From Candidatus Omnitrophota bacterium (lineage in GTDB: Bacteria > Omnitrophota > Gorgyraeia > Zapsychrales > Zapsychraceae), in the NCBI GenBank assembly GCA_035292445.1, contig DATDQB010000024.1:267-64266 (forward strand): a stretch of 64,000 bases of DNA. The letters run 5' to 3'. This document shows positions 9,001-32,313 of the stretch, piece after piece. The translations under genes and the position numbers were made by a program. The notes under the pieces are model-generated. The model worked only from the letters and a program-made list of their open reading frames with translations. It did not search any database and had not been told where the DNA came from. Every line of letters starts with the position of its first letter. Positions within the stretch are counted from its first letter, which is position 1.

Positions 9001-9267
9001 CTATCGGGGATCGTCGACAGCATTTCCGACAGTTCGCTCGATTCCAATGCCATTACAGAGGAGATCGTGTCTTTATTGACGGAATTGGTCAACAAGAGCG
9101 CCGAGGCGGCAGGCCTAGAGATGGAAGTCGAAGAATTGGGTCCGGGCGCGGACATGGAAGCAGTTAACGAACGGCTTTCAAAGATCGAGGCCATCCTGCA
9201 GGCCATCCAAGAATCCATTGTCGATGATAAGATATCGGTCAAGACTTACTTTGAAAGCGCTGGTTAG
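1..9267 (+). CDS. Giant acidic tandem-repeat protein, 5'-partial (open from nt 1, continues upstream). It has more than 215 copies of a 13-residue (39-nt) repeat with consensus x-G-I-N-W-x-D-I-G-V-M-x-x, then a ~270-aa non-repetitive acidic C-terminal domain
   Basis: Frame-1 ORF is open from nt 1 and in frame with the track ORF at 37. Strict 39-nt periodicity runs to about nt 8470. The non-repeat tail ends at TAG 9265-9267. All internal antisense and off-frame ORFs are repeat artefacts. Confidence 0.85.
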   Translation, partial: SSAGINWDEINTMTEAGINWSDIGVMTDQGINWSDIGVMSDSDINWTNIGDLSTAGINWDEINAMTEAGINWDNIGDLSTAGINWDDIEALTTAGINWTDINVLTQAGINWDDINAMTDAGINWSDIGVMSDEGINWSDIGVMSSSDINWTNISDLSSTGINWSDIGVMSDSDINWTNIGDLSTAGINWDEINTMTEAGINWSDIGVMTEQGINWSDIGVMSDSDINWSDIADMSSVGINWEDINALTEAGINWDNIEELSTAGVNWDGINDMTEAGINWDDISVLSEAGINWNDIDAMSEVGINWTNIGDLSTAGVNWSDIGVMSTRGINWDDIGVLTETGINWDNIGEMSDAGINWNEIGVMAEADINWDNISDLSTAGINWDEINAMTEAGINWSDIGVMTDQGINWSDIGVMSDSDINWSNIGDLSTAGINWDEINAMTEAGINWSDIGVMTDQGINWSDIGVMSDSDINWSNIGDLSTAGINWDEINAMTEAGINWDDLAFMSTQGINWSDIGVMSDQGINWSDIGDLSSAGINWDDIQELSTTGINWNDLDVMTEAGINWSDIGAMTEAGINWSDIGVMTDQGINWSDIGVMSDSDINWINIGDLSSAGINWDEINAMTEAGINWSDIGVMTDQGINWSDIGVMSGSDINWTNISDLSSAGINWGDITDLSEAGINWDNIGDLSSAGINWDEINAMTEAGINWSDIGVMTEQGINWSDIGVMTEQGINWSDIGVMSDSDINWSDIGVMSTSEINWTNIGDLSSAGINWDEIAVMAETGINWDDLDVMSDAGINWSDIGVMTEQGINWSDIGVMTEQGINWSDIGVMSTSDINWTNIGDLSTAGINWDEINAMTEAGINWSDIGVMTDQGINWSDIGVMSGSDINWINISDLSSAGINWDDIQELSTTGINWDEINAMTEAGINWSDIGVMTDQGINWSDIGVMSDQGINWSDIGVMSTSDINWINISDLSSAGINWDDIQELSTTGINWSDIGVMTDAGINWSDIGVMSDSDINWTDLSEMTSQGINWSDIGVMSDQGINWSDIEEMSTQGINWSDIGAMSTADINWTNIGDLSSAGINWDEIGVMAEAGVNWNDLTALTEAGINWSDIGVMSDQGINWSDIGVMSDQGINWSDIGAMSTADINWTNIGDLSSAGINWDEIGVMAEAGVNWNDLTALTEAGINWSDIGVMSESDINWSNIGDLSSAGINWNDITAMTEAGINWSDIGVMSDQGINWSDIGVMSDQGINWSDINVMSDQGINWSDIGVMSDSDINWSSIGDLSTAGINWDEITAMTEAGINWSDIGVMSEQGINWSDIGVMSDQGINWSDIGVMSDSDINWSDIGAMSTADINWTNIGDLSSADINWDEINAMTEAGINWSDIGVMTEQGINWSDIGVMSDSDINWSDIGVMSDSDINWSDIGAMSTADINWSNIGDLSSAGINWDEINTMTEAGINWSDIGVMTEQGINWSDIGVMSDSDINWSDIGVMSEQGINWSDIGVMSDSDINWSDIGVMSDQGINWSDIDIMSDQGINWSDIDIMSDQGINWSDIGVMSDQGINWSDIDIMSDQGINWSDIGVMSSQGVNWTSIGDLSTAGINWNDIDIMSDQGINWSDIGVMSGQGINWSDIGVMSSQGINWSDIDIMSDAGINWSDIDIMSDQGINWSDIGVMSSQGVNWTSIGDLSTAGINWNDIDIMSEQGINWSDIGVMSGQGINWSDIGVMSDSDINWTDLSEMTSQGINWSDMAEMTTADINWSDIGVMSDQGINWSDIGVMSETGINWSDIGEMTTSGINWDNIQDMTTTGINWDDIGAMASSGINWTDMAEMTTADINWSDIGVMSDQGINWSDIGIMSEAGINWSDIGEMSASGINWDNIGDMSTAGINWEDITVMTTRGINWDEIGVLSDAGVNWDNISDLSTAGVNWDGINDMTEANINWDNVAEMSTTGINWSDIGVMSESGINWGDINIMSDAGINWADIGELSASGINWSDIGVMSETNINWDDIGALTTSGINWGDINIMSDAGINWADIGELSASGINWSDIEVITEQGINWSDIGVMSDQGINWSDIGELSAAGINWSEIGVMAETGINWDDLQALSTSGINWDNIGDLSTAGINWSDINIMSDAGINWSDIGVMSDQGINWSDIGVMSDQGINWSDINVMSEAGINWADIGELSSSGINWSEIGVMTEAGVNWDDISALTTSGINWDDLTFMTEAGVNWDNIGDLSTAGVNWDNITVMTEAGINWSDIGVMTEQGINWSDIGELSSAGINWSDIGVMSETNINWDDLQALSTTGINWDNIGDLSTAGVNWDNITVMTEAGINWSDIGVMSDQGINWSDIGELSAAGINWSDIGVMSETNINWDDLTSLTEAGINWSDIGVMSDQGINWSDIGELSAAGINWSDLRVMGDANINWDNIGDLSAAGINWSDIGVMSETNINWDDLQALSTTGINWDNIGDLSSAGINWDNIGDLSTAGINWGDITVMSEQGINWADIGELSSSGINWSDIGVMTEQGINWSDLTALTEAGVNWDNIGDLSSVGINWDNISAMATAGINWEDISAMSASGVNWDSIGELSVADVNWDNLSELSAAGVNWDNLNVMTEAGINWSDIGALSAAGVNWDSIGNLSAAGINWDDIGAMSDQGINWADIGVLTEAGINWDDVGRMSTVGINWDDIRSLTQAGIDWSNIQEMTVAGINWDDISDMTAAGINWSDIGVMAAQNINWEGIDVLSDAGINWEDIGNLSEAGINWEDIGTMAASGINWDDLEAMTTTGINWDDVAFMTGAGINWSDMGVSTTQGVNWSDLAFMSNAGVNWDGIAYLADNASTLISNVNTILTTIQSLESIIGTSADSLVDGTLFGTINEILSVVNGLSPADITAILAAVTNIEDLLGVPGDAASEDTVFGDLLQTQEFVDTLETLLGTATDAPELESVFGKLNFISDAANDADNSAGAVLSIVTELRDDVGVNGQTPKLYDLIQNLAVELEDLSGIVDSISDSSLDSNAITEEIVSLLTELVNKSAEAAGLEMEVEELGPGADMEAVNERLSKIEAILQAIQESIVDDKISVKTYFESAG

Positions 9268-9269
9268 GG

Positions 9270-10577
9270 ATGAGACGAAACGATCGTATTTTTAAATATG
9301 TGCCATGGGTTGTTGTTTTGCTTCTCATCGGCGTCTTGACGCCTTACGCGTGGGCCGATCTGTATCTGAACATATTGGCCGTTAACGGCTCCGATGTGGC
9401 CAGAGAGAAAGAGATCAGCCAAGTTCTGCCAAAGGAATTAACGGCCGAAGATATTTTGGATACGGATGGATTAAGGCTTGAATATGATGTGGAAACCGGG
9501 GCTTATATGGTCAGCGGCACGGTGGCCTTGGCCCCCAAAGAATCAAAGACGTATAAGATCTTGATCCGCGATCTTTGGAAATTTGACGAAGAGCAAGTTG
9601 GCAAAGTCCGTGAGCAGGTTGAGGTCAGTCTTAAACAGCTTGAGGGCACGGAATATTATGATGTAGGGAAGATCAAGAAGCAGGTGTTATTGCAGAGGCT
9701 TGATTTTCTTCTGCAGGAGCAGGCCAGGTTTGCAGATAACATTGAAAAGCGTATGGATACATTTCGCGTCTATGAGCAGGAAATGGCTACCCTTCGGGAA
9801 CACGCCGGGTCGATCAAATACTGGCGGACAAAGCTCCCGGATACGGAGGATGCGGATGTTTTTTACTTTATTATTGAGCTGGAGAATCCGACGGACGAGC
9901 CGGTCATGAATAACCAGAAATATTATCTTCCTAAAGAGGTAACACCAGAGCATTTCGTTGATTTGCAGGACTTTGATATCCGTTATGATTCGATCAAGCA
10001 GAAATCCTATCTGATAAAAGAAGAGGAATTAAAGCCCAAGGAGGTCAAGCGCTATAATATCGCTCTCATTGATGTATGGAATATTAAGCAGAAAAATTTA
10101 GATAACTTGAAGGAGCGGGCCAAGTATGCGTATCAGTACATTGAGCCGACGAAATATGTAGAGAACGCAAAATATCTGATGGGGAATATCAAGAAGAATT
10201 TTGAGACGATCGAGGGGATTCAGGCCCGGGAAAAGAGCATCAATGAGCATATCAGCGTTTATCGCAGGAATGTCGAACGATTCGCCTCCACCCGCAAAGA
10301 CGTGGAGGCCTTGGAAGAGCTGTTGGAGGTCATCCGCGAAGAACTGAAACGAAGCAAGGTCGAGAATGTCTTGAAGAAGATCCGCGGATTAAGGACGCTT
10401 GTCGACATTGCCAAAAGCATCATGAAGAAACCGGTCGATCAAGTGGCGTGGAATATCATCATGGCCATTCTTATTTTCGTGGGTGTCGTGACCATCATTA
10501 ATTTTGCCATTTGGGGGAGCCGTTCCAAGAATATTGATGAAAAAGAAGAAACGAAAGAAGAGAAAAAAGGATCCTAA
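9270..10577 (+). CDS. Hypothetical bitopic protein: N-terminal signal peptide or anchor (cleavage-like AWA), long charged coiled-coil-like middle, C-terminal TM helix and a KE-rich tail
   Basis: ATG 3 nt after the giant gene stop. Hydrophobic N-terminus VVVLLLIGVLTPYAWA and C-terminal TM IIMAILIFVGVVTIINFAIWG. No recognisable enzymatic motif. Confidence 0.6.
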   Translation: MRRNDRIFKYVPWVVVLLLIGVLTPYAWADLYLNILAVNGSDVAREKEISQVLPKELTAEDILDTDGLRLEYDVETGAYMVSGTVALAPKESKTYKILIRDLWKFDEEQVGKVREQVEVSLKQLEGTEYYDVGKIKKQVLLQRLDFLLQEQARFADNIEKRMDTFRVYEQEMATLREHAGSIKYWRTKLPDTEDADVFYFIIELENPTDEPVMNNQKYYLPKEVTPEHFVDLQDFDIRYDSIKQKSYLIKEEELKPKEVKRYNIALIDVWNIKQKNLDNLKERAKYAYQYIEPTKYVENAKYLMGNIKKNFETIEGIQAREKSINEHISVYRRNVERFASTRKDVEALEELLEVIREELKRSKVENVLKKIRGLRTLVDIAKSIMKKPVDQVAWNIIMAILIFVGVVTIINFAIWGSRSKNIDEKEETKEEKKGS

Positions 10578-10580
10578 CAT

Positions 10581-12143
10581 ATGGAAAATTTGCGTGAGTT
10601 GAAATACACCGAGATCGGCCAGGTCAAAAGCATCCGCGGTTGTATTATTGTCGTGACGGGTTTTAAATCCTGCATCAATGGCCAGTTGGTGCATTTTGGC
10701 TTCGGGACCATGGGCATGATCGTGGGTTTCACTCAAGAAGAAGCCCAGGTGCTTATTTTGAAGGAATCGACGCCAATCAAGACCGGTGATGAGGTGCGCG
10801 CCTCGATGGAGCCGTTTCTGGTCCCTGTGGGGAAAAATTTTATCGGCCGTGTGGTCAACGCCTTGTGTGAGCCGTTTGACAGCTTGGGGCCCATCCAACC
10901 GGAGGCGTTTAATCCGATCTGGCCGAAAGCCCCGGGCATTCTGGACCGCCAGGTCTTAAAGGAGCCGCTGGAAACGGGGACCAAGGTCCTTGATGCCATG
11001 ATCCCTATCGGGTTGGGCCAGCGCCAATTGATATTGGGAAACAAATCGACCGGAAAAACAACGTTTATTACGGATACCATCTTAAACCAAAAACATACAG
11101 GTGTGGTTTGTATCTATTGCGCCATCGGGAAGGCCCGTTCGCAGCTCTTGCGGGCTGTCCATCTTTTTAACAAATACAACGCCTTTGACTACACGATCGT
11201 GGTGGCTGCCCCTTCATCTTCGCCGCCGGGGCAGCAGTACCTGGCGCCGTATGTGGCCTGTTCATTGGGAGAATATTTCCGCGATCGCGGCGGAAGCGTC
11301 TTTATCGGATTTGACGATTACACCAAGCATGCCTGGTGTTACCGTGAGATATCACTTTTGTTGGGGCGGGCCCCGGGGCGCGATTCTTATCCGGGCGATA
11401 TTTTTTACCTGCATTCAAAGATGATCGAGCGGGCGTGCCGCTTAAGCGATAAAAACGGCGGCGGTTCCATGACGTTTCTGCCGATCGTTGAGATATTGGA
11501 AGGCGATCTGACAGGCTACATCCCGACCAATTTGATCTCCATGACCGACGGCCAGGTTTATTTGGATGCGTCGTTATTCGGCGAAGGGCAAAAACCGGCT
11601 TTGGACCTAGGTTTGTCGGTTTCCCGCACGGGGACCAAGGTCCAGTGGTCGATCGTCAAGGATTTAAGCGCGCCCCTTCGTTTGGAATACCTGCAGTATC
11701 GGGAATTGGTCCGTATCTCCCGTTTGCGCGCGGGCAAACAGCCGGAGGAAGTGGCGGCTAAATTGAAAAGCGGGGAGATTTTAACATATTTACTTCGACA
11801 AGATAAAAATTCACCGGTCCGCATGGAGCATTTAATTCTCATCCTTTGGGGATTTCACAAGAAACATTTGCATAAATTGACCATTGAGGAGGTCAAGACA
11901 TTCGAGAAGGACATTTTCCCCTTTGCCCAGGAAAGAAATCCCGAGTTGATCAAGATTATCCGGCAACGCAAGAAGCTCGATGATGAGATCGAGAAGGGGC
12001 TGGAAGAAGTGCTACAGGCCTATATCAAGAAAGTAAAGCCCAAGGCCAAATTTAAGAAGGAAGATGGGGAGGAAGACGCGATTGTTGGTAAGATAGGCAA
12101 GAAAGTCCTGGAAGAAACATCCGGAAGGATGGGGAAAGCGTAA
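10581..12143 (+). CDS. atpA: F-type ATPase alpha subunit, divergent (P-loop GNKSTGKT instead of GDRQTGKT)
   Basis: Collinear with the E. coli AtpA core: CIYCAIGKA vs CIYVAIGQK, QYLAPYVACSLGEYFRDRG vs QYLAPYAGCAMGEYFRDRG, LLLGRAPGRDSYPGDIFYLHS, TDGQVYLD. Confidence 0.85.
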   Translation: MENLRELKYTEIGQVKSIRGCIIVVTGFKSCINGQLVHFGFGTMGMIVGFTQEEAQVLILKESTPIKTGDEVRASMEPFLVPVGKNFIGRVVNALCEPFDSLGPIQPEAFNPIWPKAPGILDRQVLKEPLETGTKVLDAMIPIGLGQRQLILGNKSTGKTTFITDTILNQKHTGVVCIYCAIGKARSQLLRAVHLFNKYNAFDYTIVVAAPSSSPPGQQYLAPYVACSLGEYFRDRGGSVFIGFDDYTKHAWCYREISLLLGRAPGRDSYPGDIFYLHSKMIERACRLSDKNGGGSMTFLPIVEILEGDLTGYIPTNLISMTDGQVYLDASLFGEGQKPALDLGLSVSRTGTKVQWSIVKDLSAPLRLEYLQYRELVRISRLRAGKQPEEVAAKLKSGEILTYLLRQDKNSPVRMEHLILILWGFHKKHLHKLTIEEVKTFEKDIFPFAQERNPELIKIIRQRKKLDDEIEKGLEEVLQAYIKKVKPKAKFKKEDGEEDAIVGKIGKKVLEETSGRMGKA

Positions 12144-12431: not shown

Positions 12432-12650
12432 ATGGTAGCTGAAACTTTCATTATTATTGCGATCATGTTCGTAGCCGTTATGGGGCCGTCGCTGGTGATC
12501 GCCCTTGTCGGCCAGTCGGTCATTAAGGCCCTGGCCAGAAATCCGTCTGCGGCCTCCAAGATATTTATGGGAATGATTGTTCTATTGCTTTTTGTCGAGG
12601 CGATTGCCATTGTTGCGTTGTTGGTGATTTTTCAGCTGTTCTCGAATTAA
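12432..12650 (+). CDS. atpE: F-type ATPase c subunit (proteolipid)
   Basis: 72 aa, two TM helices, loop ARNPSAAS (compare ARQPE), conserved carboxylate in helix 2 (FVEAIAI). Confidence 0.7.
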   Translation: MVAETFIIIAIMFVAVMGPSLVIALVGQSVIKALARNPSAASKIFMGMIVLLLFVEAIAIVALLVIFQLFSN

Positions 12651-12659
12651 AGGGACAAA

Positions 12660-12893
12660 ATGGAACCGTTTAATTTAGTAAGCGAGGCCGTCATCTTTAT
12701 CGCCGTGTTTTCGATCGTTGTCATGCTACCGTGCTATTTCGTGGTCATGATCGGGCGAGATATGATCGATCAGATCGGGCAGTTCCCGACGATGGCGGCA
12801 AGGATCCAATTGAAGGCGCTGTTTAAACTGGTGGCGGTCGAACTGGTGTCGTTTTTTCTTTTGATCGCCTTTTACCGCGTATTTGCCCATTAA
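12660..12893 (+). CDS. Small two-helix membrane protein, possibly a second divergent c-like proteolipid (Glu in helix 2, AVELVSFF)
   Basis: 77 aa, RBS aaaggga, two hydrophobic helices, located between atpE and atpF. Assignment is by position and topology only. Confidence 0.4.
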   Translation: MEPFNLVSEAVIFIAVFSIVVMLPCYFVVMIGRDMIDQIGQFPTMAARIQLKALFKLVAVELVSFFLLIAFYRVFAH

Positions 12894-12914: not shown

Positions 12915-13667
12915 ATGCAATATGAAAGCTTAATCATCGGATTCGTCGTTGTTCAGATATTTATCGTGGGGGTGATCGTTGTCTGGCTGCGGATGGCCTT
13001 GATTTCCAGCACGGAGGGGGCGGTCAACCGGCTCAATGAGGAGATCGCCAAGGCAAATGCCCGGCAGTCGGATTTAAGCAAGAAACTGCGGGAAGCTGAT
13101 GAGGAGCTGAACCGAAGGCGCGCCGAGGCCAAATCACTGACCGACAAGATGCGTGCGGACGCCCAGGAACAATCCAAAGAAGAGCGGGAGAAGATAATTT
13201 CCGAAGCGAGGAAAGAAAGCGAAGACATCCTCAACAAGGCCCAGAACGCGAAGGTCAAGATCCGCCAAGATTTGGAAAAAGAGGTCGATGTCAAGGTCAT
13301 CCAGGTCGGGATGAAGATCGTTAACGGCGTTTTGAGCGACAAGGCCAAAGGGATCTTGCATAACATTTTGGTCGATGAATTTATCGATAAATTAAAAGAA
13401 ACCCGGATGGACCGCATTAATCAGGATATCGGTGCCATTGATGTCGTCACGGTCGAGCCGTTGGATGACACCCGCAAGAACCGGATCAACGAGATCGTAA
13501 AGGAAAAGATGGGGCGGGAAGTCAAATTCAATTATTCAACGGACACCGCCATCGGCGGGGGGGTTGTCATGAAATTCGGCAGCATGGCCTTGGATGGGAG
13601 CGTTAAGAACTTGATTCGCCAAAGCGCCACCAATTTGCAGGAAGAGATCGAATCCAGGTATACGTAA
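12915..13667 (+). CDS. F-type ATPase b subunit fused to delta (OSCP)
   Basis: N-terminal TM and a long charged coiled coil (b-like). The C-terminus has the delta signature TAIGGGVVMKFGSMALDGSVKNLI. Confidence 0.7.
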   Translation: MQYESLIIGFVVVQIFIVGVIVVWLRMALISSTEGAVNRLNEEIAKANARQSDLSKKLREADEELNRRRAEAKSLTDKMRADAQEQSKEEREKIISEARKESEDILNKAQNAKVKIRQDLEKEVDVKVIQVGMKIVNGVLSDKAKGILHNILVDEFIDKLKETRMDRINQDIGAIDVVTVEPLDDTRKNRINEIVKEKMGREVKFNYSTDTAIGGGVVMKFGSMALDGSVKNLIRQSATNLQEEIESRYT

Positions 13668-13671
13668 ACTT

Positions 13672-16055
<2,384 letters not shown>

Positions 16056-16057: not shown

Positions 16058-18280
16058 ATGAAACAGCTTAATAAAATAATAGAAGAAGCCCTCATCAAGA
16101 ACAATGTCCTCGCCAAAGGCAGTTTAAAAACCTACCAAGAGCAGGCCCAAAAAAAAGGCGAATCCTTAAGGGATTTTCTCATCGACCAGAACATCGTGAC
16201 GGAGCAGCAGATCCTGGTGAGCCTTTGCCAGCAGCTTAATTTGGAGCGCGTGAGCTTTCAAACCCTTGCCATTGATTCAGCCGCCATCGAAAAAGTCCCG
16301 GTTAAGTTCGTTTGGTATTATAAGATCATGCCGATCCGCCTGGAAGGCGACACGTTGACCGTTGCCAGCGCAATTCCCTTAGACGTTAAAACGCAGGATG
16401 AACTGCGGGTGCATTTGGGATCGGGAATAAAGGTCGTGCTCGCCTCCGAACGGGAATTGACAGAGGCCTTAAAAAAATATTACGGGTTTGCATCCGATAC
16501 CATCGACCGGATCATGACGAAAGAAGGCACGTCTACGGCTGGAATGATGTCATCAATGGAGGCGATCGAAGATATCGAGCAAAAATCCGAAGACCCGACG
16601 GTCTCAAACCTGGTCAATGAGATCATCATGGAAGCGTACCGAAAGAGGGCGACCGACATCCATATTGAGCCGTACCGCGATAAGGTGCGCTTTCGTTATC
16701 GTATTGACGGCGTTCTGGTGGACGCGTATTTGCCGGATAAAGTCAAACATTTCTTGCCAGCGATCCTTTCCCGTATCAAGATCATGGCGAATTTAAGCAT
16801 CACCGAAAGGCGTCTGCCGCAGGACGGCAGCGCGGTCGTCAAGACCAGGGAACAGCCGCTTGACTTGCGCATTTCAACGATGCCCACGCCCCGCGGGGAG
16901 AGTTTGGTCGTGCGCATCCTGCCTTCCAAGGTCATGCTCTTTAGCCTGGAAAAACTCGGGTTTAACGAAGAAGGCGTCAAAAGTTTCAGGGAGCTTATTA
17001 AGAGACCGCACGGCATTATTTTCCTGACCGGACCGACGGGAAGCGGGAAAACGACGACTCTTTACGCCTGCCTGAATGAGATCAGCACGCCGGGTAAGAA
17101 GATCATCACCATCGAAGACCCGGTGGAGTATGAGATGGAAGGCATTACCCAGGTCCAGGTGAACCCGAAAGTACAATTCAGCTTTGCGACCGGGCTGCGC
17201 AGCATTCTTAGGCATGATCCGGATATCATCATGGTCGGGGAGGTCCGTGACCCGGAAACCGCGGAGATCGCGATCAAGACGGCCTTGACCGGGCATCTTG
17301 TTTTCTCGACGCTACACACCAATGACGCCTCTAGCGGCGTCACCCGCCTGATCGATATGGGCATTGAACCGTATCTGGTCGCCTCAAGCGTTGAGGCCTT
17401 TGTCGCCCAGCGGCTGGTGCGGGTGATCTGCCCGCGCTGTAAAGAAGAAGACGCTCATCCTTTGGCGGGCATTGTCGATGAGATCAGGCATTCGCTTAAA
17501 TTCGATGCCAACAGGCCGGTAAGGATATATAAGGGGAAAGGCTGCGAATATTGCAATGGCACCGGCTATTACGGCCGTGTGGCCATTTATGAAAATTTGA
17601 TGCTCAATGACCGCATCCGCGCGGCGATTCTGGAAAAACCGCGTTCCGATTATATAAAAAAGATCGCTATCGAAGAAGGCATGCAGACCTTGCGTCAAAA
17701 CGGCTGGCAAGCGGTCCTGCAGGGCATCACCACTTATGAAGAAGTGATGAATGTCACGACGAAAGATGACGCTTTGGGTGCGGGCAATCTGACGGATAAG
17801 TTAAAAAAGGATGATGCGGAACAAACGCAGGCGTCGCTGCGGCAGGTTAAAATAAAGAAACAGGGAAACTGGTCGGAAAAAAATGATTATGACGGGCGGA
17901 TGTACGAGCGCAGCTATGACCCCATTTCCGTCCGTTACCGGCTGGTGAAAAAAGATGAGCAAAACCACGACACGCTGGTGACCGACGGCATCGAACACTC
18001 GACCGTGACCGAAGATATCAGCGCCGGAGGCTTGCGCTTCACCTGCAAGCAGCTGATCGGCGTGGGCTCGATTTTGGAATTGAACATTCAGGCCGGGGAG
18101 GCAGGGAAAAGCATCGATTGTTTTTCCAAAGTTTGCCGCGTGGAGCAGGATAATTTCGATAATGCCTACACGATCGTGGCGTATTACCTTGATATTTCAA
18201 GCGCGGACCGTGTATTGATCGACCGGCTCGTCAAGAAAAAAGCCAATAAGGGCATCGAAGTCAAAGAAAACGTGTCTTAG
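16058..18280 (+). CDS. Type II/IV secretion ATPase (GspE/PilB family) with an N-terminal GspE_N domain and a C-terminal PilZ (c-di-GMP-binding) domain
   Basis: Walker A GPTGSGKTTT, tetracysteine CPRC...CEYC, and a C-terminal ~190-aa extension carrying RMYER (RxxxR, nt 17897-17911) and DISAGG (DxSxGG, nt 18014-18031). Confidence 0.85.
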   Translation: MKQLNKIIEEALIKNNVLAKGSLKTYQEQAQKKGESLRDFLIDQNIVTEQQILVSLCQQLNLERVSFQTLAIDSAAIEKVPVKFVWYYKIMPIRLEGDTLTVASAIPLDVKTQDELRVHLGSGIKVVLASERELTEALKKYYGFASDTIDRIMTKEGTSTAGMMSSMEAIEDIEQKSEDPTVSNLVNEIIMEAYRKRATDIHIEPYRDKVRFRYRIDGVLVDAYLPDKVKHFLPAILSRIKIMANLSITERRLPQDGSAVVKTREQPLDLRISTMPTPRGESLVVRILPSKVMLFSLEKLGFNEEGVKSFRELIKRPHGIIFLTGPTGSGKTTTLYACLNEISTPGKKIITIEDPVEYEMEGITQVQVNPKVQFSFATGLRSILRHDPDIIMVGEVRDPETAEIAIKTALTGHLVFSTLHTNDASSGVTRLIDMGIEPYLVASSVEAFVAQRLVRVICPRCKEEDAHPLAGIVDEIRHSLKFDANRPVRIYKGKGCEYCNGTGYYGRVAIYENLMLNDRIRAAILEKPRSDYIKKIAIEEGMQTLRQNGWQAVLQGITTYEEVMNVTTKDDALGAGNLTDKLKKDDAEQTQASLRQVKIKKQGNWSEKNDYDGRMYERSYDPISVRYRLVKKDEQNHDTLVTDGIEHSTVTEDISAGGLRFTCKQLIGVGSILELNIQAGEAGKSIDCFSKVCRVEQDNFDNAYTIVAYYLDISSADRVLIDRLVKKKANKGIEVKENVS

Positions 18281-18327: not shown

Positions 18328-19539
18328 ATGGCCACCTATATTTACAGAGCCAAAAAAAGTACCGCCGAAACTGTCACGGGCACGGTCAAGGCCCAAAGCC
18401 AGGATGAGGCCATCGACCTCATTAACCAGCTGGGGCTGTTGCCGATTTCTGTGAAGCCGCAGGAGGAGAGGGAGGAGAGCGGCGCCATTTCCCGGACGAG
18501 GACCGTCTCTTCCAAAGAACGCTACATATTCACCAAACAATTGGCCAATCTGTTAAAATCCGGCGTGACGATCCTGCGGGCCTTGGCGATCATCGGTGAA
18601 CAGACCCATAATCGTTTTCTAAGAAGGGTCATCGAGCATATCGGTCATCAGATCAAAAACGGCAAGTCGCTTTCGCAGGCGCTTTCGGTGTATCCCAATT
18701 TATTTTCCTCTTTGTATGTGACTATGGTCGCGGCCGGCGAGGAAAGCGGCAATTTGCAGTCGATGCTGGTATCGGTCGCCGAGTACCAGTTCCGCGAAGA
18801 GGAGATCCGCTCCAAGGTGCGCATGGCCGTCGCTTATCCTATTTTGATGCTCATTGTCGGGGGCGCGACGATCTATTTTATGCTGTCTTTTGTGCTGCCA
18901 AAGATGTCGGGGTTATTTGCCAACATGGGAGAGCAGCTTCCTTTGCCGACACAGATCTTATTGGGCGTCAGCAAGGCGATCAACCAATGGGGCTTATTCG
19001 GCATCCTGGCGGCGGTGGTCGGCGTATTTGTCGTTTTGCAATGGGCCAAATCGGCGTATGGGAAACGCGTCTTAAGCCAATTTATTTTAGGGATACCTCT
19101 CATCGGCGACATCTTGCTCAAGACGGAGCTGGCGCGGTTTTGCCGGACGCTGGTCCTTTTGAACCAGGGGGGGATCTCATTGGTGCATTCCCTTCATATC
19201 GCGATCCCTATTTTAGAGAATGAAGTGGTCAAGAACCATTTGATCCGATGCAAAGAGGCATTGCTGGCCGGCGGCTCTTTCGGGGAAACCCTTAAAAAAT
19301 CCAGCCAGATCCCCACGATGATGGGTTATATGATCTCGGTGGGGGAAGAGTCCGGGAGCCTTGATGAGGTCCTTATTGAGCTGGCCGTTTCTTTTGAGGG
19401 GGAAACGAACGAACGCATCAAGGTCATGACGACCCTATTGGAGCCGGTCTTGATATTGGCCATCGGCGTTATCGTCGGTTTCATTGTTTTTGCCATGTTG
19501 CTGCCTATCTTTCAGTTGGATATCATGTCTCAAGGATGA
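18328..19539 (+). CDS. Type II/IV secretion platform protein (GspF/PilC family)
   Basis: 403 aa with two T2SF-type repeats and three TM segments. Typical position after the ATPase. Confidence 0.85.
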   Translation: MATYIYRAKKSTAETVTGTVKAQSQDEAIDLINQLGLLPISVKPQEEREESGAISRTRTVSSKERYIFTKQLANLLKSGVTILRALAIIGEQTHNRFLRRVIEHIGHQIKNGKSLSQALSVYPNLFSSLYVTMVAAGEESGNLQSMLVSVAEYQFREEEIRSKVRMAVAYPILMLIVGGATIYFMLSFVLPKMSGLFANMGEQLPLPTQILLGVSKAINQWGLFGILAAVVGVFVVLQWAKSAYGKRVLSQFILGIPLIGDILLKTELARFCRTLVLLNQGGISLVHSLHIAIPILENEVVKNHLIRCKEALLAGGSFGETLKKSSQIPTMMGYMISVGEESGSLDEVLIELAVSFEGETNERIKVMTTLLEPVLILAIGVIVGFIVFAMLLPIFQLDIMSQG

Positions 19540-20351
19540 TGTTGATCAATTCCCTCATGGTCGCACGGCTCTTTCTCATCGGCGCGTTGGTATTTTTCCC
19601 GGATGTTTCCTGGGCCGTTTCCTGGCAGGAAGAAAAGGGAAAGCACTTTATCATTCGTACGGCCGGGGAAGATGCCGAGGTCTGGGCCAAAGAAGTTTTG
19701 CGTCACGCGGAGGATTATTACAGGACCATTGCCCAAGAGATCGATTATCCGCGTTACGATGATTTCTGGACATGGGACGAGCGCGTTTCTATCACGGTGT
19801 ACCCGGATAAGCAAACGTTCCTTGAGGCAACAGGCCAACCCGAGTGGTCGATGGGAGGGGCGATCCACCGCCCGCGGCATGAACATAAGCGCACCATTGT
19901 TACTTATAAGCAGGAAGAAAATTTTTTAGACGGTTTGTTGCCGCATGAGATCAGTCATTTGATGCTCATTGATTATATTGGCGAGAAATACCCTATTCCG
20001 ATTTGGTTGAACGAGGGGGTTGCCCAGCTGCAGGAGAAAGACAGGCGCCCTAAGGCGGATATATTGATGCGCCAGTTGGTAACGGCCAATCAGGCGATTC
20101 CCTTTGATGAACTTTTTGAGACGGATATCCGCCAGGAAACGGAAACACTGCGCGTGGCCGTTTTTTATTCGCAAAGCGTTTCGATCGTTGATTTTCTGAT
20201 CACAGATTATGGCAGCAAGAAATTCGGCCTGCTGTTGCGGCAGCTGCGCGATGGGAAGGATTTTGAGGAGGCTTTGGGCACAACGTATGCGACCACGGTT
20301 CCTTCTATAGAGGAGCTTGAAAAAAAATGGGTAAGTTATATGAAAAAATAA
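19536..20351 (+). CDS. Secreted HExxH zinc-metallopeptidase-like protein (peptidase MA-like / DUF1570-like)
   Basis: N-terminal signal peptide, HEISH at nt 19944-19958 followed by NEG (a possible third ligand Glu). 4-nt overlap with the upstream gene. Confidence 0.5.
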   Translation: MMLINSLMVARLFLIGALVFFPDVSWAVSWQEEKGKHFIIRTAGEDAEVWAKEVLRHAEDYYRTIAQEIDYPRYDDFWTWDERVSITVYPDKQTFLEATGQPEWSMGGAIHRPRHEHKRTIVTYKQEENFLDGLLPHEISHLMLIDYIGEKYPIPIWLNEGVAQLQEKDRRPKADILMRQLVTANQAIPFDELFETDIRQETETLRVAVFYSQSVSIVDFLITDYGSKKFGLLLRQLRDGKDFEEALGTTYATTVPSIEELEKKWVSYMKK

Positions 20352-20396: not shown

Positions 20397-20822
20397 ATGT
20401 TTCTTGGGTCGATCATAAAGAAAAAAGGCTTTACGTTGGTTGAAATCATGCTTGTTGTCATCATCATCGCGGCACTTTCAGCCATGGTGGTTCCGCGGCT
20501 GGTGGGGCGTTCCGAACAGGCCAAGGTATCCGTGGCCCGTTCCGACATTGAAGCCCATTTGTCAACGGCCCTTAAGCTGTATGAATTGGATAACGGCAGT
20601 TTCCCGACGACCGCTCAAGGCTTGCAGGCCTTGAAGGTCCAGCCTACGACCGCCCCCGCGCCCAAGAACTGGAACGGCCCGTATGTCGAAAAAGACCCCC
20701 TCGACCCCTGGGGCAATTCTTATGTTTACGCATCTCCCGGGAAGAACCGGCCCGATTACGACCTTTATTCCACGGGCAAGAATCCCGATTCCCCCGATGA
20801 TGACATAAAAAACTGGGAATAA
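20397..20822 (+). CDS. gspG: Major pseudopilin, GspG family (prepilin N-terminus GFTLVEIM)
   Basis: KKGFTLVEIMLVVIIIAALSAMVVPRL and the GspG signature NWNGPYV...DPWGN.Y.Y. Confidence 0.85.
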   Translation: MFLGSIIKKKGFTLVEIMLVVIIIAALSAMVVPRLVGRSEQAKVSVARSDIEAHLSTALKLYELDNGSFPTTAQGLQALKVQPTTAPAPKNWNGPYVEKDPLDPWGNSYVYASPGKNRPDYDLYSTGKNPDSPDDDIKNWE

Positions 20823-20831: not shown

Positions 20832-21281
20832 ATGATCCGCCCAAACCAACACGATCGAAACGCACCCGCGAAGGGTTTCTTGGCTGCCAACGCGGGATTC
20901 ACTTTTATTGAGATCATGGTGACGCTGGCCGTTTTATCCGGCAGTATCGTCATGATCTACCGGGCCCTTTTTTCTTCGCTGGATCATATGAGCCGCTTGA
21001 ACAGCCGGTTATATGCGGACATTTTGTTGGAAGACCGTATCGCCACGATCGAACGCACCCTGCGGGCCTACAAAGCCCTTCCCTTTGAACTGAATCCGCC
21101 GCAGGCTGTTGACGTGGGTGCCAAAGAGATCCAGTTTACGCCGCAGATGAAAATCAGCGAAGTCAGCGGTTTTATGGATGTTTTTCAAATTGACCTGGCC
21201 TTGCAGTGGCAGGAAGGCCAGCGCCAAATCCAGTTGTCCCGCTCGGCGTATATCTCAGATTTTATTTATGAAAGCCCTTAA
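20832..21281 (+). CDS. Minor pseudopilin (GspH/I-like), prepilin N-terminus NAGFTFIEIMVTLAV
   Basis: Class III signal-peptide motif G-F-T-x-I-E and a hydrophobic helix. Confidence 0.6.
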   Translation: MIRPNQHDRNAPAKGFLAANAGFTFIEIMVTLAVLSGSIVMIYRALFSSLDHMSRLNSRLYADILLEDRIATIERTLRAYKALPFELNPPQAVDVGAKEIQFTPQMKISEVSGFMDVFQIDLALQWQEGQRQIQLSRSAYISDFIYESP

Positions 21282-21879
21282 GAGAGCCTTGATATCTCAA
21301 TCGGCCGGCATGACGTTCATGGAAATCATGCTGGTCGTTTCCCTGATCGGGATGGTGAGCATCGCTTTGTACCAAGCCTTTGCCAACGGCATGAAGGTCT
21401 GGGAAAAAAGCCGTGAGATGGTCGTTGAGGAGGACATCATCATCTTTTTTGATAAATTTGCGCAGGATTTAAGGAATACGTTTGTTTTCTCCACTTTGCC
21501 TTTTGAAGGGGATAGCCAGCGTTTTTCGTTCCCGTCGCTTGTTCGGGCGGCGGATATGAAAAAGTTTTCTGCCGTTAAACAATTTAAAGAACAAATGGGG
21601 CGCGTGGAATATTATTACGACCCTCAAGCGGATAGTTTGAACAGAAAAGTGGCCAACTACAGCCAGGCGCTGAACCGGAGTTTTGAGGAGCCGCAAATGC
21701 TCGTAGCGCCCATCGAGCGGATCCAGTTTCGTTATTATTATCTTACCGATGACGGTGAGCTCTTTAGCGAGCAGGTGCTGGAAGTGATACCCTCGGGCGT
21801 TGAGGTGGTGGTGATTTTCTCCGATCAAAAAGGGACAAGGCAGGTACAACGGTATTTTGCCATTCCGCTTAAGATCTAA
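21268..21879 (+). CDS. Minor pseudopilin (GspJ-like), prepilin N-terminus AGMTFMEIMLVV
   Basis: The track ORF starts at 21178 but overlaps the previous gene. ATG 21268 gives MKALKRALISQSAGMTFMEIM, a typical prepilin leader. Confidence 0.55.
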   Translation: MKALKRALISQSAGMTFMEIMLVVSLIGMVSIALYQAFANGMKVWEKSREMVVEEDIIIFFDKFAQDLRNTFVFSTLPFEGDSQRFSFPSLVRAADMKKFSAVKQFKEQMGRVEYYYDPQADSLNRKVANYSQALNRSFEEPQMLVAPIERIQFRYYYLTDDGELFSEQVLEVIPSGVEVVVIFSDQKGTRQVQRYFAIPLKI

Positions 21880-21881: not shown

Positions 21882-22919
21882 ATGTGCATGAGCATCGTTC
21901 ATAGAAAATGCAGGGGTTCGGTTTTGATCTTCGCGCTTTGGATCGTTATGCTGCTGACGGTTTTTGCGACCGCCATAGGCTTACGGGTGCGCCAGCGGAT
22001 GACGGTCCTATCGAGGATCGAAGACCGAAGCCGCCTGCACTATATTACCGAGGCGGGTGCCAAAAAAACCATCGCCGCCATACGTTTTGACAAGGAGCGC
22101 CATCCGCAACAGATGGACGCTGAGTCCAAGGCCTACCGGCACCATAACCAGGATGTGTTTGAAAAAATAACTCTGCCGGAAGGGAGCGCACGGGTCAGTT
22201 ACGAGCTCCATCCTTTGGAAAAAAAGGAAAAAGACCTGCGCTTTGGGGTTGTGGATGAGGAAAGCAAGATCAATGTGAATACATCGGACCGCGCCAGCCT
22301 TACGCGCCTATTCGATCTGGTCACGCCGTTAGATGAGGAAGAAGCCAAGGGGCTGGTCGAAGCCATCATCAGTTGGCGTGAGATCGGCGAAACCCAACTG
22401 GTCGGGTTCGGCAGTGATGAGTATTATACGAACCTTCCTTATCCTTACCTGAATAAACATGCGCCTTTTGAAATCCTTGACGAACTTTTGCTGGTGAGGG
22501 GGATGAATGAGGAAATTTACGAGCGTATCAAGCCATTTATCACCATCTACGGTGATGGGTTGGTCAACATCAACACGGCCTCTGAAGAGGTCCTCTTCGC
22601 GTTAGGGCTGGAGGATCCGGTCATAGAGAAATTCCTTGCCGCCAGGGGCGGCTTAGACGGGGAGGAAGCGACGATGGATGACCATGTTTTCTTGGCCGCT
22701 TATGATGTCGCCAGCGAAGTGCAGAGCTTGGTTTCTTTGGATAAGGAAGAGGTCATTCAGCTCAGTTTTCTTAACGGTGCCGGAAAGATCAAGACAACCA
22801 GCGATTATTACCTGATCCAAAGCTTCGGCCAGCTGGATGAGGGGAAAGAGAAGCTTCGTATTGACTGTATCTACAACGCCAGGGACAATATTATTGAGTA
22901 TTGGAATGAAAATAATTAA
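21882..22919 (+). CDS. GspK-like minor pseudopilin
   Basis: N-terminal RGSVLIFALWIVMLLTVFA and a GspK-type helix-hairpin-helix region LVNINTASEEVLFALGL. Confidence 0.55.
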   Translation: MCMSIVHRKCRGSVLIFALWIVMLLTVFATAIGLRVRQRMTVLSRIEDRSRLHYITEAGAKKTIAAIRFDKERHPQQMDAESKAYRHHNQDVFEKITLPEGSARVSYELHPLEKKEKDLRFGVVDEESKINVNTSDRASLTRLFDLVTPLDEEEAKGLVEAIISWREIGETQLVGFGSDEYYTNLPYPYLNKHAPFEILDELLLVRGMNEEIYERIKPFITIYGDGLVNINTASEEVLFALGLEDPVIEKFLAARGGLDGEEATMDDHVFLAAYDVASEVQSLVSLDKEEVIQLSFLNGAGKIKTTSDYYLIQSFGQLDEGKEKLRIDCIYNARDNIIEYWNENN

Positions 22920-22988: not shown

Positions 22989-24464
22989 ATGAATATCAAA
23001 GGCAGTCATTTTATCATCGCTTCTTTCAATGAGGAGACGCTGAAAGTCGCCGAGATCAAAGGCTTAGGCACCTCCACCCGCATCACCAACGTGACTGAAC
23101 AGAACGTCAAAGGGGTCACGGCAGAGGAATTGCCGGGGCTTATCCAAAAGGCGTTTTTGCATTTTAAGGCCAAGCAGGCCAGCCTGCTCTACTCTATCGC
23201 GCCCACTATGCTCACGACGAAAAATATCGAGATCCCCTCGGTGAATCCCGAAGAGATCAAGTCGATCGTCAATCTCCAGGCTAGCCGCCACACGCCCTTT
23301 ACCAGGGAAGAGATCCAGATCGGTTATATCAATATCGGCGTTTATAAGAAAAATTATTCCAAGGTCCTTTTGATCATCGCCAATAAGAATGTCCTGAAGG
23401 ACCAACTCTTGACTTTCCAAAAGGCCGGGTTGAATTTTAAGAATGTTTTGTTCCCCGCGGAGGCCATCGCCGCCTTCTATGCCAGGATCCTCAAGCAAAA
23501 AGCGAAGGCAGCACCGGAGGCCGTCATTGACATTGGCAGAAACTCGACGGAATTTATCGTGATCCATAAGGGCCAGGCGATCACCACCCGCAGCATTCCC
23601 GTGGGCAAATCCCAGCTCAACAAAGAAGGCATGGGCGCCCAGACACGGCTCATCGGGGAGCTGAACCAAACCATCGAATCCTATCAGACCGAAGACATTG
23701 AGGTGCTGCCCGCCCGCTATGTTTTGACCAGCGATGATACGCAAACACAGAGTTTAAAATCCATGCTTAAGGAAAAACTGAACTGGAATGTCGACATCGT
23801 CCCCTACATCGATCACGTGAAAGTCGCTAAGCCGCTTCTTAAGCGCATGGCGACCGAATTCAGCGAAACATCCTTTCTTGATCTGGCCGCCTCCGCCGCC
23901 ATGATCAAAGAGACCAAGGTCAGCTTGGTCCCGGAAGAACTCCAGTTTCAAAAATCGATCGAAGAACAAGGGAAGGAAGTCTTTAAAGCCGCGTTATTGA
24001 GCATCCTGCTTTTGATCCTGGTGGGAGCGGCCTTGGGGCTTAAAATTTATTACAAGAGCAGCTTCCTGCAAAAATTGAAAGATGACAATGCCGTCAACCG
24101 TCAGGCGGTCGAGAAACTGGAGACATTGTCCGAGAAGACAAAGATCGTCAAAAACTTTTTAGAAACACGGATGGACAGCTTGGACACCATCTATGAGCTT
24201 TACAGCCGTATTCCCGATGAGGTTTATTTGACCAGTATCGACATGGATGAATCCGGCAATGTGAGTATTCAGGGCGTCTCCGATGTGGCTTCCATCGTTT
24301 TTAATTTAGGGACATCGCTCAAGGAGTCGGCGTTCTTTAAAAGCGTCGATATTAAATCAACGACATCAAAGAAAGACCGCGGCAAGGATGTTTCGGCTTT
24401 TGAGATCACGTTGACGATCCACTCGAGTCCGTCGGCCAATGAGCCGGCAGAACCAAAGGAGTAA
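22989..24464 (+). CDS. Pilus assembly protein, PilM-like actin-fold domain fused to a TM segment and a PilN-like periplasmic domain (GspL-like architecture)
   Basis: An AT-rich putative promoter precedes it. A TM helix AALLSILLLILVGAALGL lies at about aa 335. Similarity is pattern-level only. Confidence 0.5.
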   Translation: MNIKGSHFIIASFNEETLKVAEIKGLGTSTRITNVTEQNVKGVTAEELPGLIQKAFLHFKAKQASLLYSIAPTMLTTKNIEIPSVNPEEIKSIVNLQASRHTPFTREEIQIGYINIGVYKKNYSKVLLIIANKNVLKDQLLTFQKAGLNFKNVLFPAEAIAAFYARILKQKAKAAPEAVIDIGRNSTEFIVIHKGQAITTRSIPVGKSQLNKEGMGAQTRLIGELNQTIESYQTEDIEVLPARYVLTSDDTQTQSLKSMLKEKLNWNVDIVPYIDHVKVAKPLLKRMATEFSETSFLDLAASAAMIKETKVSLVPEELQFQKSIEEQGKEVFKAALLSILLLILVGAALGLKIYYKSSFLQKLKDDNAVNRQAVEKLETLSEKTKIVKNFLETRMDSLDTIYELYSRIPDEVYLTSIDMDESGNVSIQGVSDVASIVFNLGTSLKESAFFKSVDIKSTTSKKDRGKDVSAFEITLTIHSSPSANEPAEPKE

Positions 24465-25017
24465 TGCGTTGATCCAAAAGTTTGTATCAGGTTTATCGGA
24501 AAAAGAACGGAAAGTCTTCTACATCACCGTCTTGTTTGTTTCCTTGGCTTTGTTCGATCGGTTGTTTATCGGGCCTGTTCTCTCGCACCTGGAGCGGCTG
24601 GATCTGGAGATCGAGAAGCAGAAAGTGGATATTCTTCGGGACCGCCGGTTCCTTGCCTATCAGGACCGTATAAAAAAAGAAAGCGAGATTTTCAGCAAAT
24701 ATTTTTCCGCAGCCGTTCCGGATGACGACGTCGTTAACGCGCAGTTCTTGAGTTTGATCGAAAAATTGGCCACCCTCGGCAAGGTCAGCCTTATCAAAAG
24801 CAACCCTTCCCACACCAACAAACAGGAATTGTTCAACGAATATTTCGCCAGCGTTGACTGCAACGGAAATCTGGAAGACGTCATCTCCTTCATGCATACG
24901 ATCAACACGACCGAAGAACTTCTGAAAGTCACCAAGTTTAACATGTCGCCCCGGCGCGGTGGAAGTGAGAACGAAGTGAAGGTGTCCATGTCCGTCGTCA
25001 AATTGATCTCTCATTAG
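24439..25017 (+). CDS. PilO/GspM-like bitopic protein
   Basis: Short cytoplasmic N-terminus, one TM, a coiled coil and a C-terminal domain. Overlaps the previous gene by 26 nt. Confidence 0.4.
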   Translation: MSRQNQRSNALIQKFVSGLSEKERKVFYITVLFVSLALFDRLFIGPVLSHLERLDLEIEKQKVDILRDRRFLAYQDRIKKESEIFSKYFSAAVPDDDVVNAQFLSLIEKLATLGKVSLIKSNPSHTNKQELFNEYFASVDCNGNLEDVISFMHTINTTEELLKVTKFNMSPRRGGSENEVKVSMSVVKLISH

Positions 25018-25046: not shown

Positions 25047-25907
25047 ATGATCAAGCGTTTATTTATTACGAGCACGCTTTTTTGTCTTATTTCCCTCGAT
25101 GCAGCTTTGGCCAATCCTATCCAGGATAAATACGGCGAGGCCATGGCCGCCTTAAGGAACCAGGAATACCAAAAAGCGGTTGAGCTTTTCGAGGAAACGC
25201 TAAAGCTGAATTCCCGATTCGCCCAGCCTTATAATTTTATAGCCATGGCCAAAAAAGAGCTTAGGGCCGACCCGAAAGAGGTCATCGAGCTTTTGAAAAA
25301 ATCCATCGACATTGACCCCAATTTTGCGCTGGCCCATGACAATCTGGGAAAGATGTATTACGGCGAAGGCGAGTTTCAGTTGGCCAAAGAACACGCCCAA
25401 AAGGCCGTTGACTTGGACCCCGCCTTGGTAACGGCGCGTTTGTCCCTGGCGTGGATATGTTTGTTGGGTATGGGGGAAACGGGGGAAGCGATCGAGCAAT
25501 TTGAGGAAGCCATCGCCATTCAAAAGACCGATTACGGGCAGTTCGGGCTGGGCATGGCTTATTTTATGGACCACCAGCGCGGCAAAGTGTTGGAGATGAT
25601 CACCGGTCTTCGCCTGGAGGGGAACGAAAAGTTGGCGACGGATCTGGAAAAGATGATCAGGGAAGGCCACTATTTGCCTCCCAAAGGCCTTCAATCGGTA
25701 TTGGCCCCGCGAACGGCCGCAAAAGAAGAAGAGGCGCCTGCCGAGGAACCCGCTATAGAGAATATCAAGTATCCTGTCCGTTTAAGCGGCCGGCTGGATG
25801 AGAGCCAGTCATCGATGGCGGCAGAACCGGCCCCGAATGCGATGACGGCCGCCGAGCGCATCCGCCAGCTTCAGCGAAATTATATAGATCAAGGCCCTGG
25901 TTATTGA
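25047..25907 (+). CDS. Secreted tetratricopeptide-repeat protein
   Basis: Signal peptide ending ALA-NP and several TPR-like 34-mers (AxxxxxLGxxYxxxGxxxxAxxxxxxA). Confidence 0.6.
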   Translation: MIKRLFITSTLFCLISLDAALANPIQDKYGEAMAALRNQEYQKAVELFEETLKLNSRFAQPYNFIAMAKKELRADPKEVIELLKKSIDIDPNFALAHDNLGKMYYGEGEFQLAKEHAQKAVDLDPALVTARLSLAWICLLGMGETGEAIEQFEEAIAIQKTDYGQFGLGMAYFMDHQRGKVLEMITGLRLEGNEKLATDLEKMIREGHYLPPKGLQSVLAPRTAAKEEEAPAEEPAIENIKYPVRLSGRLDESQSSMAAEPAPNAMTAAERIRQLQRNYIDQGPGY

Positions 25908-32289: not shown

Positions 32290-32313
32290 CGTATTGGACC
32301 AAAAGAGCCTATC

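Follow-up and report, generated by a model that had tools for sequence, protein, structure and literature searches.

Can the motor ATPase of a type 4 filament respond to cyclic di-GMP (c-di-GMP) through a receptor domain fused to its own C-terminus? This question is raised by the gene of a 740-amino acid (aa) protein within 64,000 nucleotides of contig DATDQB010000024.1, from a Candidatus Omnitrophota bacterium; this whole stretch of DNA is called the window below. Known c-di-GMP control of type 4 pilus and type II secretion system (T2SS) motors acts either at an N-terminal MshEN site, as in MshE and some PilB ATPases, or through a PilB-PilZ-FimX relay. The original prediction, a GspE/PilB-type ATPase with a C-terminal PilZ domain, was confirmed. 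We consider it likely, from its motifs, its predicted fold and analogies with characterized systems, that the protein is the assembly (extension) ATPase of a T2SS-like/type IVa pilus (T4aP)-like filament and is gated by c-di-GMP via the tethered PilZ domain.

An identical protein from a Candidatus Omnitrophota metagenome-assembled genome (MAG) is in the NCBI database (P0001). The 740-aa protein contains an MshEN, a T2SSE and a PilZ domain (Table 1). In its full-length AlphaFold2 (AF2) model, which has a mean predicted local distance difference test (pLDDT) score of 84.5, the N-terminal, ATPase and PilZ parts are all modelled with confidence. The Pfam PilZ profile (PF07238) scores 35.9 bits at residues 639-726 of the whole protein and 39.1 bits against the last 200 aa, well over the gathering cutoff of 22.5. 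The two motifs from which the PilZ domain had been predicted, RMYER and DISAGG, are real, RMYER being located 115 aa past the last zinc-motif cysteine (C499) and about 47 aa past the end of the ATPase C-terminal domain (CTD, about residue 567). They are no chance match, because a strict expression for the pair, RxxxR-(18-45 aa)-[DN][hydrophobic]Sx[GS]G, found this open reading frame (ORF) alone among all six-frame ORFs of at least 60 aa in the window.

Both motifs are kept by the relatives of the protein. The 120 best database clusters are 54-77% identical to it, nearly all with the same three Pfam domains, and a PilZ match is precomputed for 118 of them. Both motifs occur in 119 of the 120, a count which takes in two N-terminally truncated fragments whose C-termini show both; the lone exception reads DINAGG. 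Across 117 aligned homologues, which go down to 54% overall identity, R614, R618 and G658 are invariant, position 653 is always Asp or Asn, and S655 and A656 are each kept in 116. The two RxxxR arginines, on which the original prediction depended, are therefore present throughout. Elsewhere, the PilZ domain diverges to 22-54% identity (39-sequence PilZ-only alignment). Invariant motifs amid a divergent domain are the pattern expected of a conserved ligand site, and the in silico evidence indicates a strong purifying selection of the ligand-binding residues across this phylum-level family.

A phmmer search with a single sequence, the last 180 aa, against PDB sequences gave no PilZ protein and only noise (E 0.17-0.95). 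A family profile and a fold search were needed. Built from the C-terminal 135 aa, the profile matched the c-di-GMP receptor MotI/YpfA in the PDB (5VX6, E 9e-7). The AF2 model of the PilZ domain alone (pLDDT 90.7, predicted template modelling score 0.81) shows six long strands, a further strand of 3 residues and a helix at its residues 110-133. With this predicted structure, the first 32 Foldseek matches in the PDB were all PilZ domains, MotI (5VX6) being the best (E 7e-7, TM 0.69), and most of them were solved with c-di-GMP, for example MotI, Alg44, YcgR, MrkH, PP4397, the BcsA PilZ domain and PA0012. The PF07238 score, the RxxxR and (D/N)xSxxG motifs and the six-strand barrel with its C-terminal helix place the domain in the PilZ family, and in silico it has every sequence and fold hallmark of the nucleotide-binding PilZ domains. 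From these sequence and model features we infer that the fused domain binds c-di-GMP. The residue preceding R614 is small in the family (Ser, Ala or Gly); in VCA0042 and PP4397, a small residue before RxxxR reportedly favours a c-di-GMP monomer over an intercalated dimer.

PilZ-fold proteins which bind PilB but not c-di-GMP do exist (PMC8389850; bioRxiv 10.1101/814665). The fused domain could similarly be a nucleotide-independent adaptor, like XAC1133 and PA2960, assembling or localising the ATPase without sensing c-di-GMP, and the fact that a signature scan saw no diguanylate cyclase near the locus would suit such a role. However, RxxxR and a portion of the barrel were lost from those adaptors (bioRxiv 10.1101/814665), whereas here RxxxR and DxSxxG are near-invariant in a domain that otherwise varies widely. 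Furthermore, the non-binding, tetrameric Xanthomonas PilZ structures rank 28th or lower among the Foldseek matches. A pure adaptor is thus very unlikely.

The ATPase to which the PilZ domain is fused appears, in silico, to be catalytically intact. The Walker A motif GPTGSGKT and the set of Asp box, Walker B and His box (IITIEDPVEYEM, DPDIIMVGEVRD, TGHLVFSTLHTND) are each at least 90% conserved in the family, and the zinc cysteines C458, C461, C496 and C499 are invariant. The T2SSE profile (PF00437), the catalytic motifs, the tetracysteine motif and an operon with platform and (pseudo)pilin genes all mark it as an assembly ATPase. Neither a T2SS GspE nor a T4aP PilB can be assigned, because the scores for both NCBIfam equivalogs are under the cutoff (577.4 vs 630.25 bits for GspE, TIGR02533; 566 vs 675.65 for PilB, TIGR02538).

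The roughly 45 aa between ATPase and PilZ domain likely form a flexible tether, as indicated by conservation and by the structural model. The AF2 pLDDT is below 50 at residues 575-578 and 583-612, and the stretch that separates R614 from the CTD (residues 567-613) spans 29 to 66 aa across the family, with a median of 49. The linker (568-612) is the least conserved part of the protein, with a mean majority fraction of 0.32 vs 0.82 in the ATPase, and the PilZ domain is conserved about as well as the MshEN domain (0.59 vs 0.58). RxxxR is placed right where the disordered linker joins the barrel.

In the original prediction, the protein was set against the MshE-type ATPases, where an N-terminal MshEN domain does the c-di-GMP sensing. 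This contrast holds at the functional level but not for the architecture, because the protein also has an MshEN fold, in which the c-di-GMP-binding residues are replaced family-wide. This domain (AF2 pLDDT 85-93) comprises a four-helix ND0 part (residues ~3-60) and an ND1 part (~74-155), and residues 3-142 align to the c-di-GMP-bound MshEN domain of Vibrio cholerae MshE (VcMshE; 5HTL) with an E of 8e-11. The hydrophobic scaffold is kept, and motif II retains its hydrophobic positions L37, L41, I42, I52 and L56. In this alignment, Arg9, Gly11, Gly18, Leu29, Gln32, Arg38 and Gly40 of VcMshE become Ile7, Glu9, Asn16, Gln27, Ala30, Ser36 and Arg38, respectively. For Geobacter PilB (5ZFR, 5TSG), the nearest relatives with a solved structure, this alignment shows RLGxxL...Q retained in motif II. 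Among the 117 relatives, the commonest residues at the Arg9, Gly11, Gln32, Arg38 and Gly40 columns are Ile, Gln, Ala, Ser and Lys, and at none of these five columns is the canonical residue one of the six commonest types. The tandem 24-residue motifs RLGxx(L/V/I)(L/V/I)xxG(L/V/I)(L/V/I)xxxxLxxxLxxQ are absent from the protein, and the NCBIfam model of the c-di-GMP motif (NF053729) reaches 15.4 bits vs a cutoff of 38. Since the motif test fails, the protein falls, by its sequence, outside the MshE-type class of c-di-GMP receptors, and the ancestral c-di-GMP site of its N-terminal domain was lost, as far as in silico evidence goes. With the MshEN motif degenerate family-wide and the PilZ motifs kept, the c-di-GMP sensor appears to have been relocated from the N- to the C-terminus, through the loss of the MshEN site and the gain of the PilZ site.

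A dual sensor is a different reading of the same domain: MshEN would have a non-canonical mode of binding c-di-GMP, or another nucleotide, and PilZ would be a second site of different affinity. The retained fold and motif II hydrophobics are consistent with it, as is a conserved Lys/Arg at residue 6, one before the Arg9 equivalent, and the affinities of MshEN and PilZ domains are typically about tenfold apart (PMC5013675). Nevertheless, Arg9 and Gln32, which are reportedly pivotal for c-di-GMP binding in VcMshE (PMC12943098, PMC5013675), are among the residues replaced, and the NF053729 score is low. We therefore regard a dual sensor as improbable.

The fusion is a conserved family of the Omnitrophota lineage, as judged from its sequences, rather than a one-off. 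Among the best 150 of 17,771 matches in a search of representative sequences, and in a scan of the GTDB, it was found only in this lineage and in a few doubtfully labelled MAGs, which bears on the question of its taxonomic distribution raised with the original prediction. A profile of the last 240 aa had 57 matches at E <= 1e-30 in 1.84 billion representatives; all those bearing a source organism name were Omnitrophota, and all four divergent full-length matches of this set that were scanned had the MshEN-T2SSE-PilZ architecture. The GTDB scan of species-representative genomes used a 9-sequence PilZ alignment and the seed T[EK]DISAGGL, a sample biased to close relatives, and yielded 21 family loci, of which 17 have full-length ORFs and 4 are cut by contig ends. 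Sixteen of the full ORFs, 638-753 aa long, have a strict Walker A motif, and their PilZ match lies about 600 residues in. The P-loop of L019 (742 aa; locus 10001-10435, ORF 8204-10438) reads GPTGAGKT instead of GPTGSGKT, and this is the most divergent Omnitrophota-labelled fusion (44% identity).

Most of the GTDB family loci are labelled Omnitrophota. One from “Candidatus Margulisiibacteriota” (L017), on a 4.9-kb contig with the downstream filament genes present, encodes a protein 64-67% identical to those of Omnitrophota and is, by this likeness, probably mis-binned. Four come from MAGs labelled “uncultured Planctomycetia” (L010, L012, L015, L018). Their three full-length fusions form a sister clade, 69-73% identical to each other and 52-55% to Omnitrophota; L012, L015 and L018 have the full F-type ATPase/filament synteny described below, and L010 has the downstream filament genes. 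Both labels are probably unreliable, either through mis-binning or through label mapping.

This recurrence also bears on whether the fusion is an artefact in which a GspE gene and a separate small pilZ gene were joined by a frameshift, in assembly or by read-through in gene calling. Small standalone PilZ relatives are indeed present in Omnitrophota (P0190, P0198). Yet more than 110 independent clusters at 90% identity, drawn from NCBI, JGI, ENA and Logan assemblies, have the fusion as a single ORF, and so do the 17 full-length GTDB ORFs. The frame runs unbroken through the variable-length linker, so that an artefact is refuted.

The other GTDB matches were PilZ proteins on their own, most of them about 205 aa long (Gastranaerophilales, Vampirovibrio, Thermotoga, Bacillota). 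In the search of representatives, smaller standalone PilZ proteins such as P0190 (129 aa; with a source name, from Omnitrophota) and P0198 (122 aa) score about 100 bits against the fused-domain profile. They could stem from the lineage that donated the fused domain, or be its unfused paralogues, and they may be the “small pilZ homologs” described next to giant genes. Representatives of about 1000 aa were considered as larger T2SSE-PilZ fusions and rejected, as domain scans showed other architectures: two tandem T2SSE domains per chain in P0200, P0220, P0225 and P0241, and T2SSF domains with T2SSE in P0268 (1047 aa). These may be real double motors or gene-calling read-throughs. Another PilZ-ATPase fusion, P0239 (939 aa), has three PilZ domains followed by a Hsp70/DnaK-like ATPase.

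How might a PilZ domain act on such a motor? With the MshE-type ATPases (V. cholerae MshE, Pseudomonas aeruginosa PA14_29490; 5HTL) the protein shares the ATPase family, the MshEN fold and sensing by the motor itself, but those lack the C-terminal PilZ domain and keep the MshEN motifs. The chemistry of the two sites also differs, PilZ holding c-di-GMP via arginines and the beta-barrel, MshEN mainly via hydrophobic contacts (PMC5013675). A second parallel is the PilB-PilZ-FimX system of Xanthomonas citri (and PilZ/PA2960-PilB of P. aeruginosa), in which a motif-less PilB N-domain is likewise combined with a PilZ-fold module. The X. citri PilZ-fold protein binds the ND0/ND1 domain of PilB, which has no MshEN motifs, at a 6:6 ratio, and c-di-GMP-bound FimX raises the ATPase activity of PilB (PMC8389850). 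There, however, PilZ is separate, lacks RxxxR and does not bind c-di-GMP, which is sensed by the EAL domain of FimX, while in Omnitrophota PilZ is fused and keeps its motifs; no FimX-like or GGDEF/EAL protein was found in the window or in the related loci. The Omnitrophota fusion is outside the PilB-PilZ-FimX system but, by analogy, probably works like it. It reads as a single-chain “Rosetta stone” fusion of PilB and PilZ with sensing restored to PilZ.

The closest matches in sequence and structure are YcgR, MotI (YpfA, 5VX6), PP4397 and VCA0042, which also have RxxxR in an interdomain linker, and whose size class corresponds to the standalone PilZ relatives of about 205 aa from the GTDB scan. 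In structures of the YcgR/MotI type, c-di-GMP binding re-orients the two domains. In these receptors the barrel is preceded by a PilZN/YcgR-N domain, and the targets are flagellar motors, which they mostly brake, acting in trans, whereas the upstream partner here is a hexameric secretion ATPase. BcsA and Alg44, both among the fold matches, offer examples of a PilZ domain in cis with the machine it controls, where c-di-GMP activates export. They are glycosyltransferase- or HlyD-type membrane proteins, in contrast to the cytoplasmic AAA+-like secretion ATPase considered here.

Taken from these systems, a possible mechanism would start with c-di-GMP binding to the RxxxR loop at the linker/barrel junction and to the DxSxxG strand. 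As in YcgR, MotI and PP4397, binding would give order to the end of the linker and let the PilZ barrel dock onto the ATPase, for which the motif-less ND0/ND1 domain would be the likeliest site; this is where the free PilZ protein of Xanthomonas binds PilB. With six sensors per hexamer, the 6:6 ratio would be built in. Docking would alter the ATPase activity and/or the engagement with the GspF/PilM platform, such that filament assembly is activated at high c-di-GMP, for example upon surface or host contact. The least certain step is the sign of the regulation, for which we favour activation by analogy with MshE, FimX-PilZ-PilB, BcsA and Alg44. The specific version, in which PilZ docks in cis on the old Xanthomonas-type interface upon c-di-GMP binding and so controls both the filament and the F-type ATPase apparatus encoded next to it, is offered tentatively, and we hold it to be doubtful.

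Several points weigh against a c-di-GMP-gated motor. Its support is based on sequences or models throughout, and the docking site and direction of regulation rest on analogies. Inhibition is a live alternative, since PilZ domains can be brakes, as in YcgR and MotI. There is a small chance that the conserved Lys/Arg at residue 6 is part of a residual, non-canonical nucleotide site in the MshEN domain. Moreover, Pfam gave no GGDEF or EAL match in the sizeable ORFs of the window, including a giant one of 3076 aa, and GG[DE]EF and HD-GYP signatures were absent from about 331 kb (the 64-kb window and about 267 kb of related loci), EAL being outside this signature scan. No source of c-di-GMP was therefore found in the window or the related loci. 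GGDEF domains within giant proteins, with small pilZ genes beside them, have been reported for Omnitrophota (bioRxiv 10.1101/2023.11.21.568195).

The genes around the fusion indicate which machine it would drive (Table 1). Upstream, an F-type ATPase set of unusual gene order, in which no subunit-a homologue was recognized between 9270 and 16055, ends with a beta-like gene whose stop is 2 bp ahead of the ATPase start codon. Downstream, co-oriented and closely spaced genes encode a filament system. Neither a secretin, nor PilT, nor a prepilin peptidase was found among the window ORFs scanned, and since the ATPase is also under both equivalog cutoffs, we call the machine, from its sequences, a T2SS-like/T4aP-like type-4 filament system.

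Table 1 Features of the fusion gene and of its locus (positions in the window; residues of the 740-aa protein)
Feature	Position	Strand	Basis or remark
MshEN-T2SSE-PilZ ATPase gene, 740 aa	16058..18280	+	Complete, stop codon included, ATG start
MshEN-fold N-terminal domain, residues 1-150	16058..16507	+	Pfam MshEN (PF05157) at 60-145, 58.8 bits (cutoff 23.1); degenerate c-di-GMP motif
T2SSE ATPase core, residues 177-567 (N2 domain and C-terminal ATPase domain)	16586..17758	+	Pfam T2SSE at 177-564, 433 bits
Walker A P-loop GPTGSGKT, residues 325-332	17030..17053	+	Invariant, 117 sequences
Tetracysteine zinc motif CxxC...CxxC (C458, C461, C496, C499)	17429..17554	+	Cys invariant, 117 sequences
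Flexible linker (predicted), residues 568-612	17759..17893	+	Low AF2 pLDDT, low conservation
Canonical PilZ domain, residues 613-735 (N-terminal loop, six-strand beta-barrel, C-terminal helix)	17894..18262	+	
RxxxR motif R614-M-Y-E-R618, linker/barrel junction	17897..17911	+	R614, R618 117/117
(D/N)xSxxG motif D653-I-S-A-G-G658	18014..18031	+	Family alignment
orf435, conserved	9270-10577	+	Pfam: no match
F-type alpha-like	10581-12143	+	Pfam
F-type epsilon-like, 93 aa	12147-12428	+	Small ORF, read directly
Two c-like hairpins	12432-12650, 12660-12893	+	Small ORFs, read directly
b/delta fusion	12915-13667	+	Pfam
gamma	13672-14541	+	Pfam
beta-like	14553-16055	+	Pfam
GspF platform	18328-19539	+	Pfam
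Peptidase-MA-like	19536-20351	+	Pfam
GspG major pseudopilin	20397-20822	+	Pfam
Minor pseudopilins	20832-21281, 21178-21879	+	Pfam
GspK-like	21882-22919	+	Pfam
PilM-PilN fusion (GspL analogue)	22989-24464	+	Pfam
PilO/GspM-like	24439-25017	+	Pfam
TPR protein	25047-25907	+	Pfam

The order from orf435 over alpha, b/delta, gamma, beta, the fusion and GspF to the filament genes up to PilO was found in all 13 related loci with enough upstream flank, where upstream synteny was tested for orf435, alpha, b/delta, gamma and beta only, and b/delta was undetected in two of the 13. The co-location of F-type ATPase and T4aP genes has been described as a “symbiotic” locus in every Omnitrophota class (Seymour et al. 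2023, PMC10066038). The adjacency was thus rejected as a new finding, and the window is an instance of the published locus, with a match to the type-2/3 F-ATPase.

This neighbourhood suggests another output for the PilZ domain. It could bind c-di-GMP and serve localisation or coupling, be it to the F-type ATPase complex, to PilM/GspL or to a giant surface protein. The adjacency to the F-type set in 13 of 13 loci, the gap of only 2 bp and the long flexible tether, which suits partner capture, are in line with this, and in X. citri FimX-PilZ governs the polar localisation of PilB (PMC8389850). On the other hand, any such partner is hypothetical, and gene adjacency by itself is no proof of physical coupling. 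We rate localisation or coupling as the output unlikely, and it overlaps a c-di-GMP-gated motor rather than excluding it.

Several neighbours deserve a mention of their own. In the product of orf435, a long charged region, which may be a coiled coil, lies between two terminal hydrophobic stretches, and the gene is kept upstream of the alpha-like gene in 12 related loci (26-47% identity). The peptidase-MA gene between GspF and GspG overlaps the GspF stop by 4 nt, a position kept in most related loci, and its product is not a prepilin (A24) peptidase. Upstream of the F-type set, the giant 3076-aa ORF (37-9267, + strand) has three Lysostaphin_N-like repeats and ALTTAQ repeats, without GGDEF, and fits the reported Omnitrophota pattern of giant genes beside secretion or pilus loci. 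Right after the filament operon, an 830-aa STT3-like oligosaccharyltransferase (25901-28393, - strand) might glycosylate pilins or surface proteins. A few kb downstream, a second prepilin-like set (31870-34358, + strand) includes two genes with N_methyl signals, one of them sub-cutoff, as well as a 506-aa protein to which PilX_N matches weakly and below threshold. Farther away, a 692-aa protein (50768-52846, + strand) combines a cyclic-nucleotide-binding domain with a patatin-like phospholipase, and is another second-messenger-linked effector in the window.

No description of a T2SSE-PilZ fusion was found in the searched literature, which did not cover paywalled papers and InterPro architecture tables. 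It is unlisted in a survey of PilZ architectures (bioRxiv 10.1101/814665), in a review of PilB cofactors (PMC11656802) and in the MshEN paper (PMC5013675), and a 2026 complete-genome preprint does not mention PilZ (bioRxiv 10.64898/2026.06.07.730766). The paper on the “symbiotic” locus mentions neither c-di-GMP nor PilB (PMC10066038), which makes the fused sensor on the filament motor a new element of that locus. The fusion architecture is already visible in the automatic Pfam annotation of database entries. In principle, the fusion is unsurprising; its value is as a clean single-chain model of how c-di-GMP controls secretion ATPases and as the first regulatory clue for a phylum-wide host-interaction locus of uncultured nanobacteria.

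By linking PilZ and the extension ATPase covalently, the fusion adds an independent, “Rosetta-stone” argument for a direct functional partnership of the two. A single polypeptide with a fixed 6:6 ratio and no adaptor would be a simple system for the transfer of a dinucleotide signal to a hexameric motor, and one protein lineage would illustrate the loss of one c-di-GMP site and the gain of another. For the F-type ATPase/type-4-filament locus, the proposed basis of host attachment in uncultured, ultra-small Omnitrophota, it would be the first regulatory handle, with the testable prediction that c-di-GMP gates the apparatus. If the proposed sensor swap is true, a phylum-specific apparatus, often encoded beside giant adhesin/lysin genes, would be under c-di-GMP control, and these ultra-small predatory or parasitic cells would use it to attach to their hosts or to move on them.

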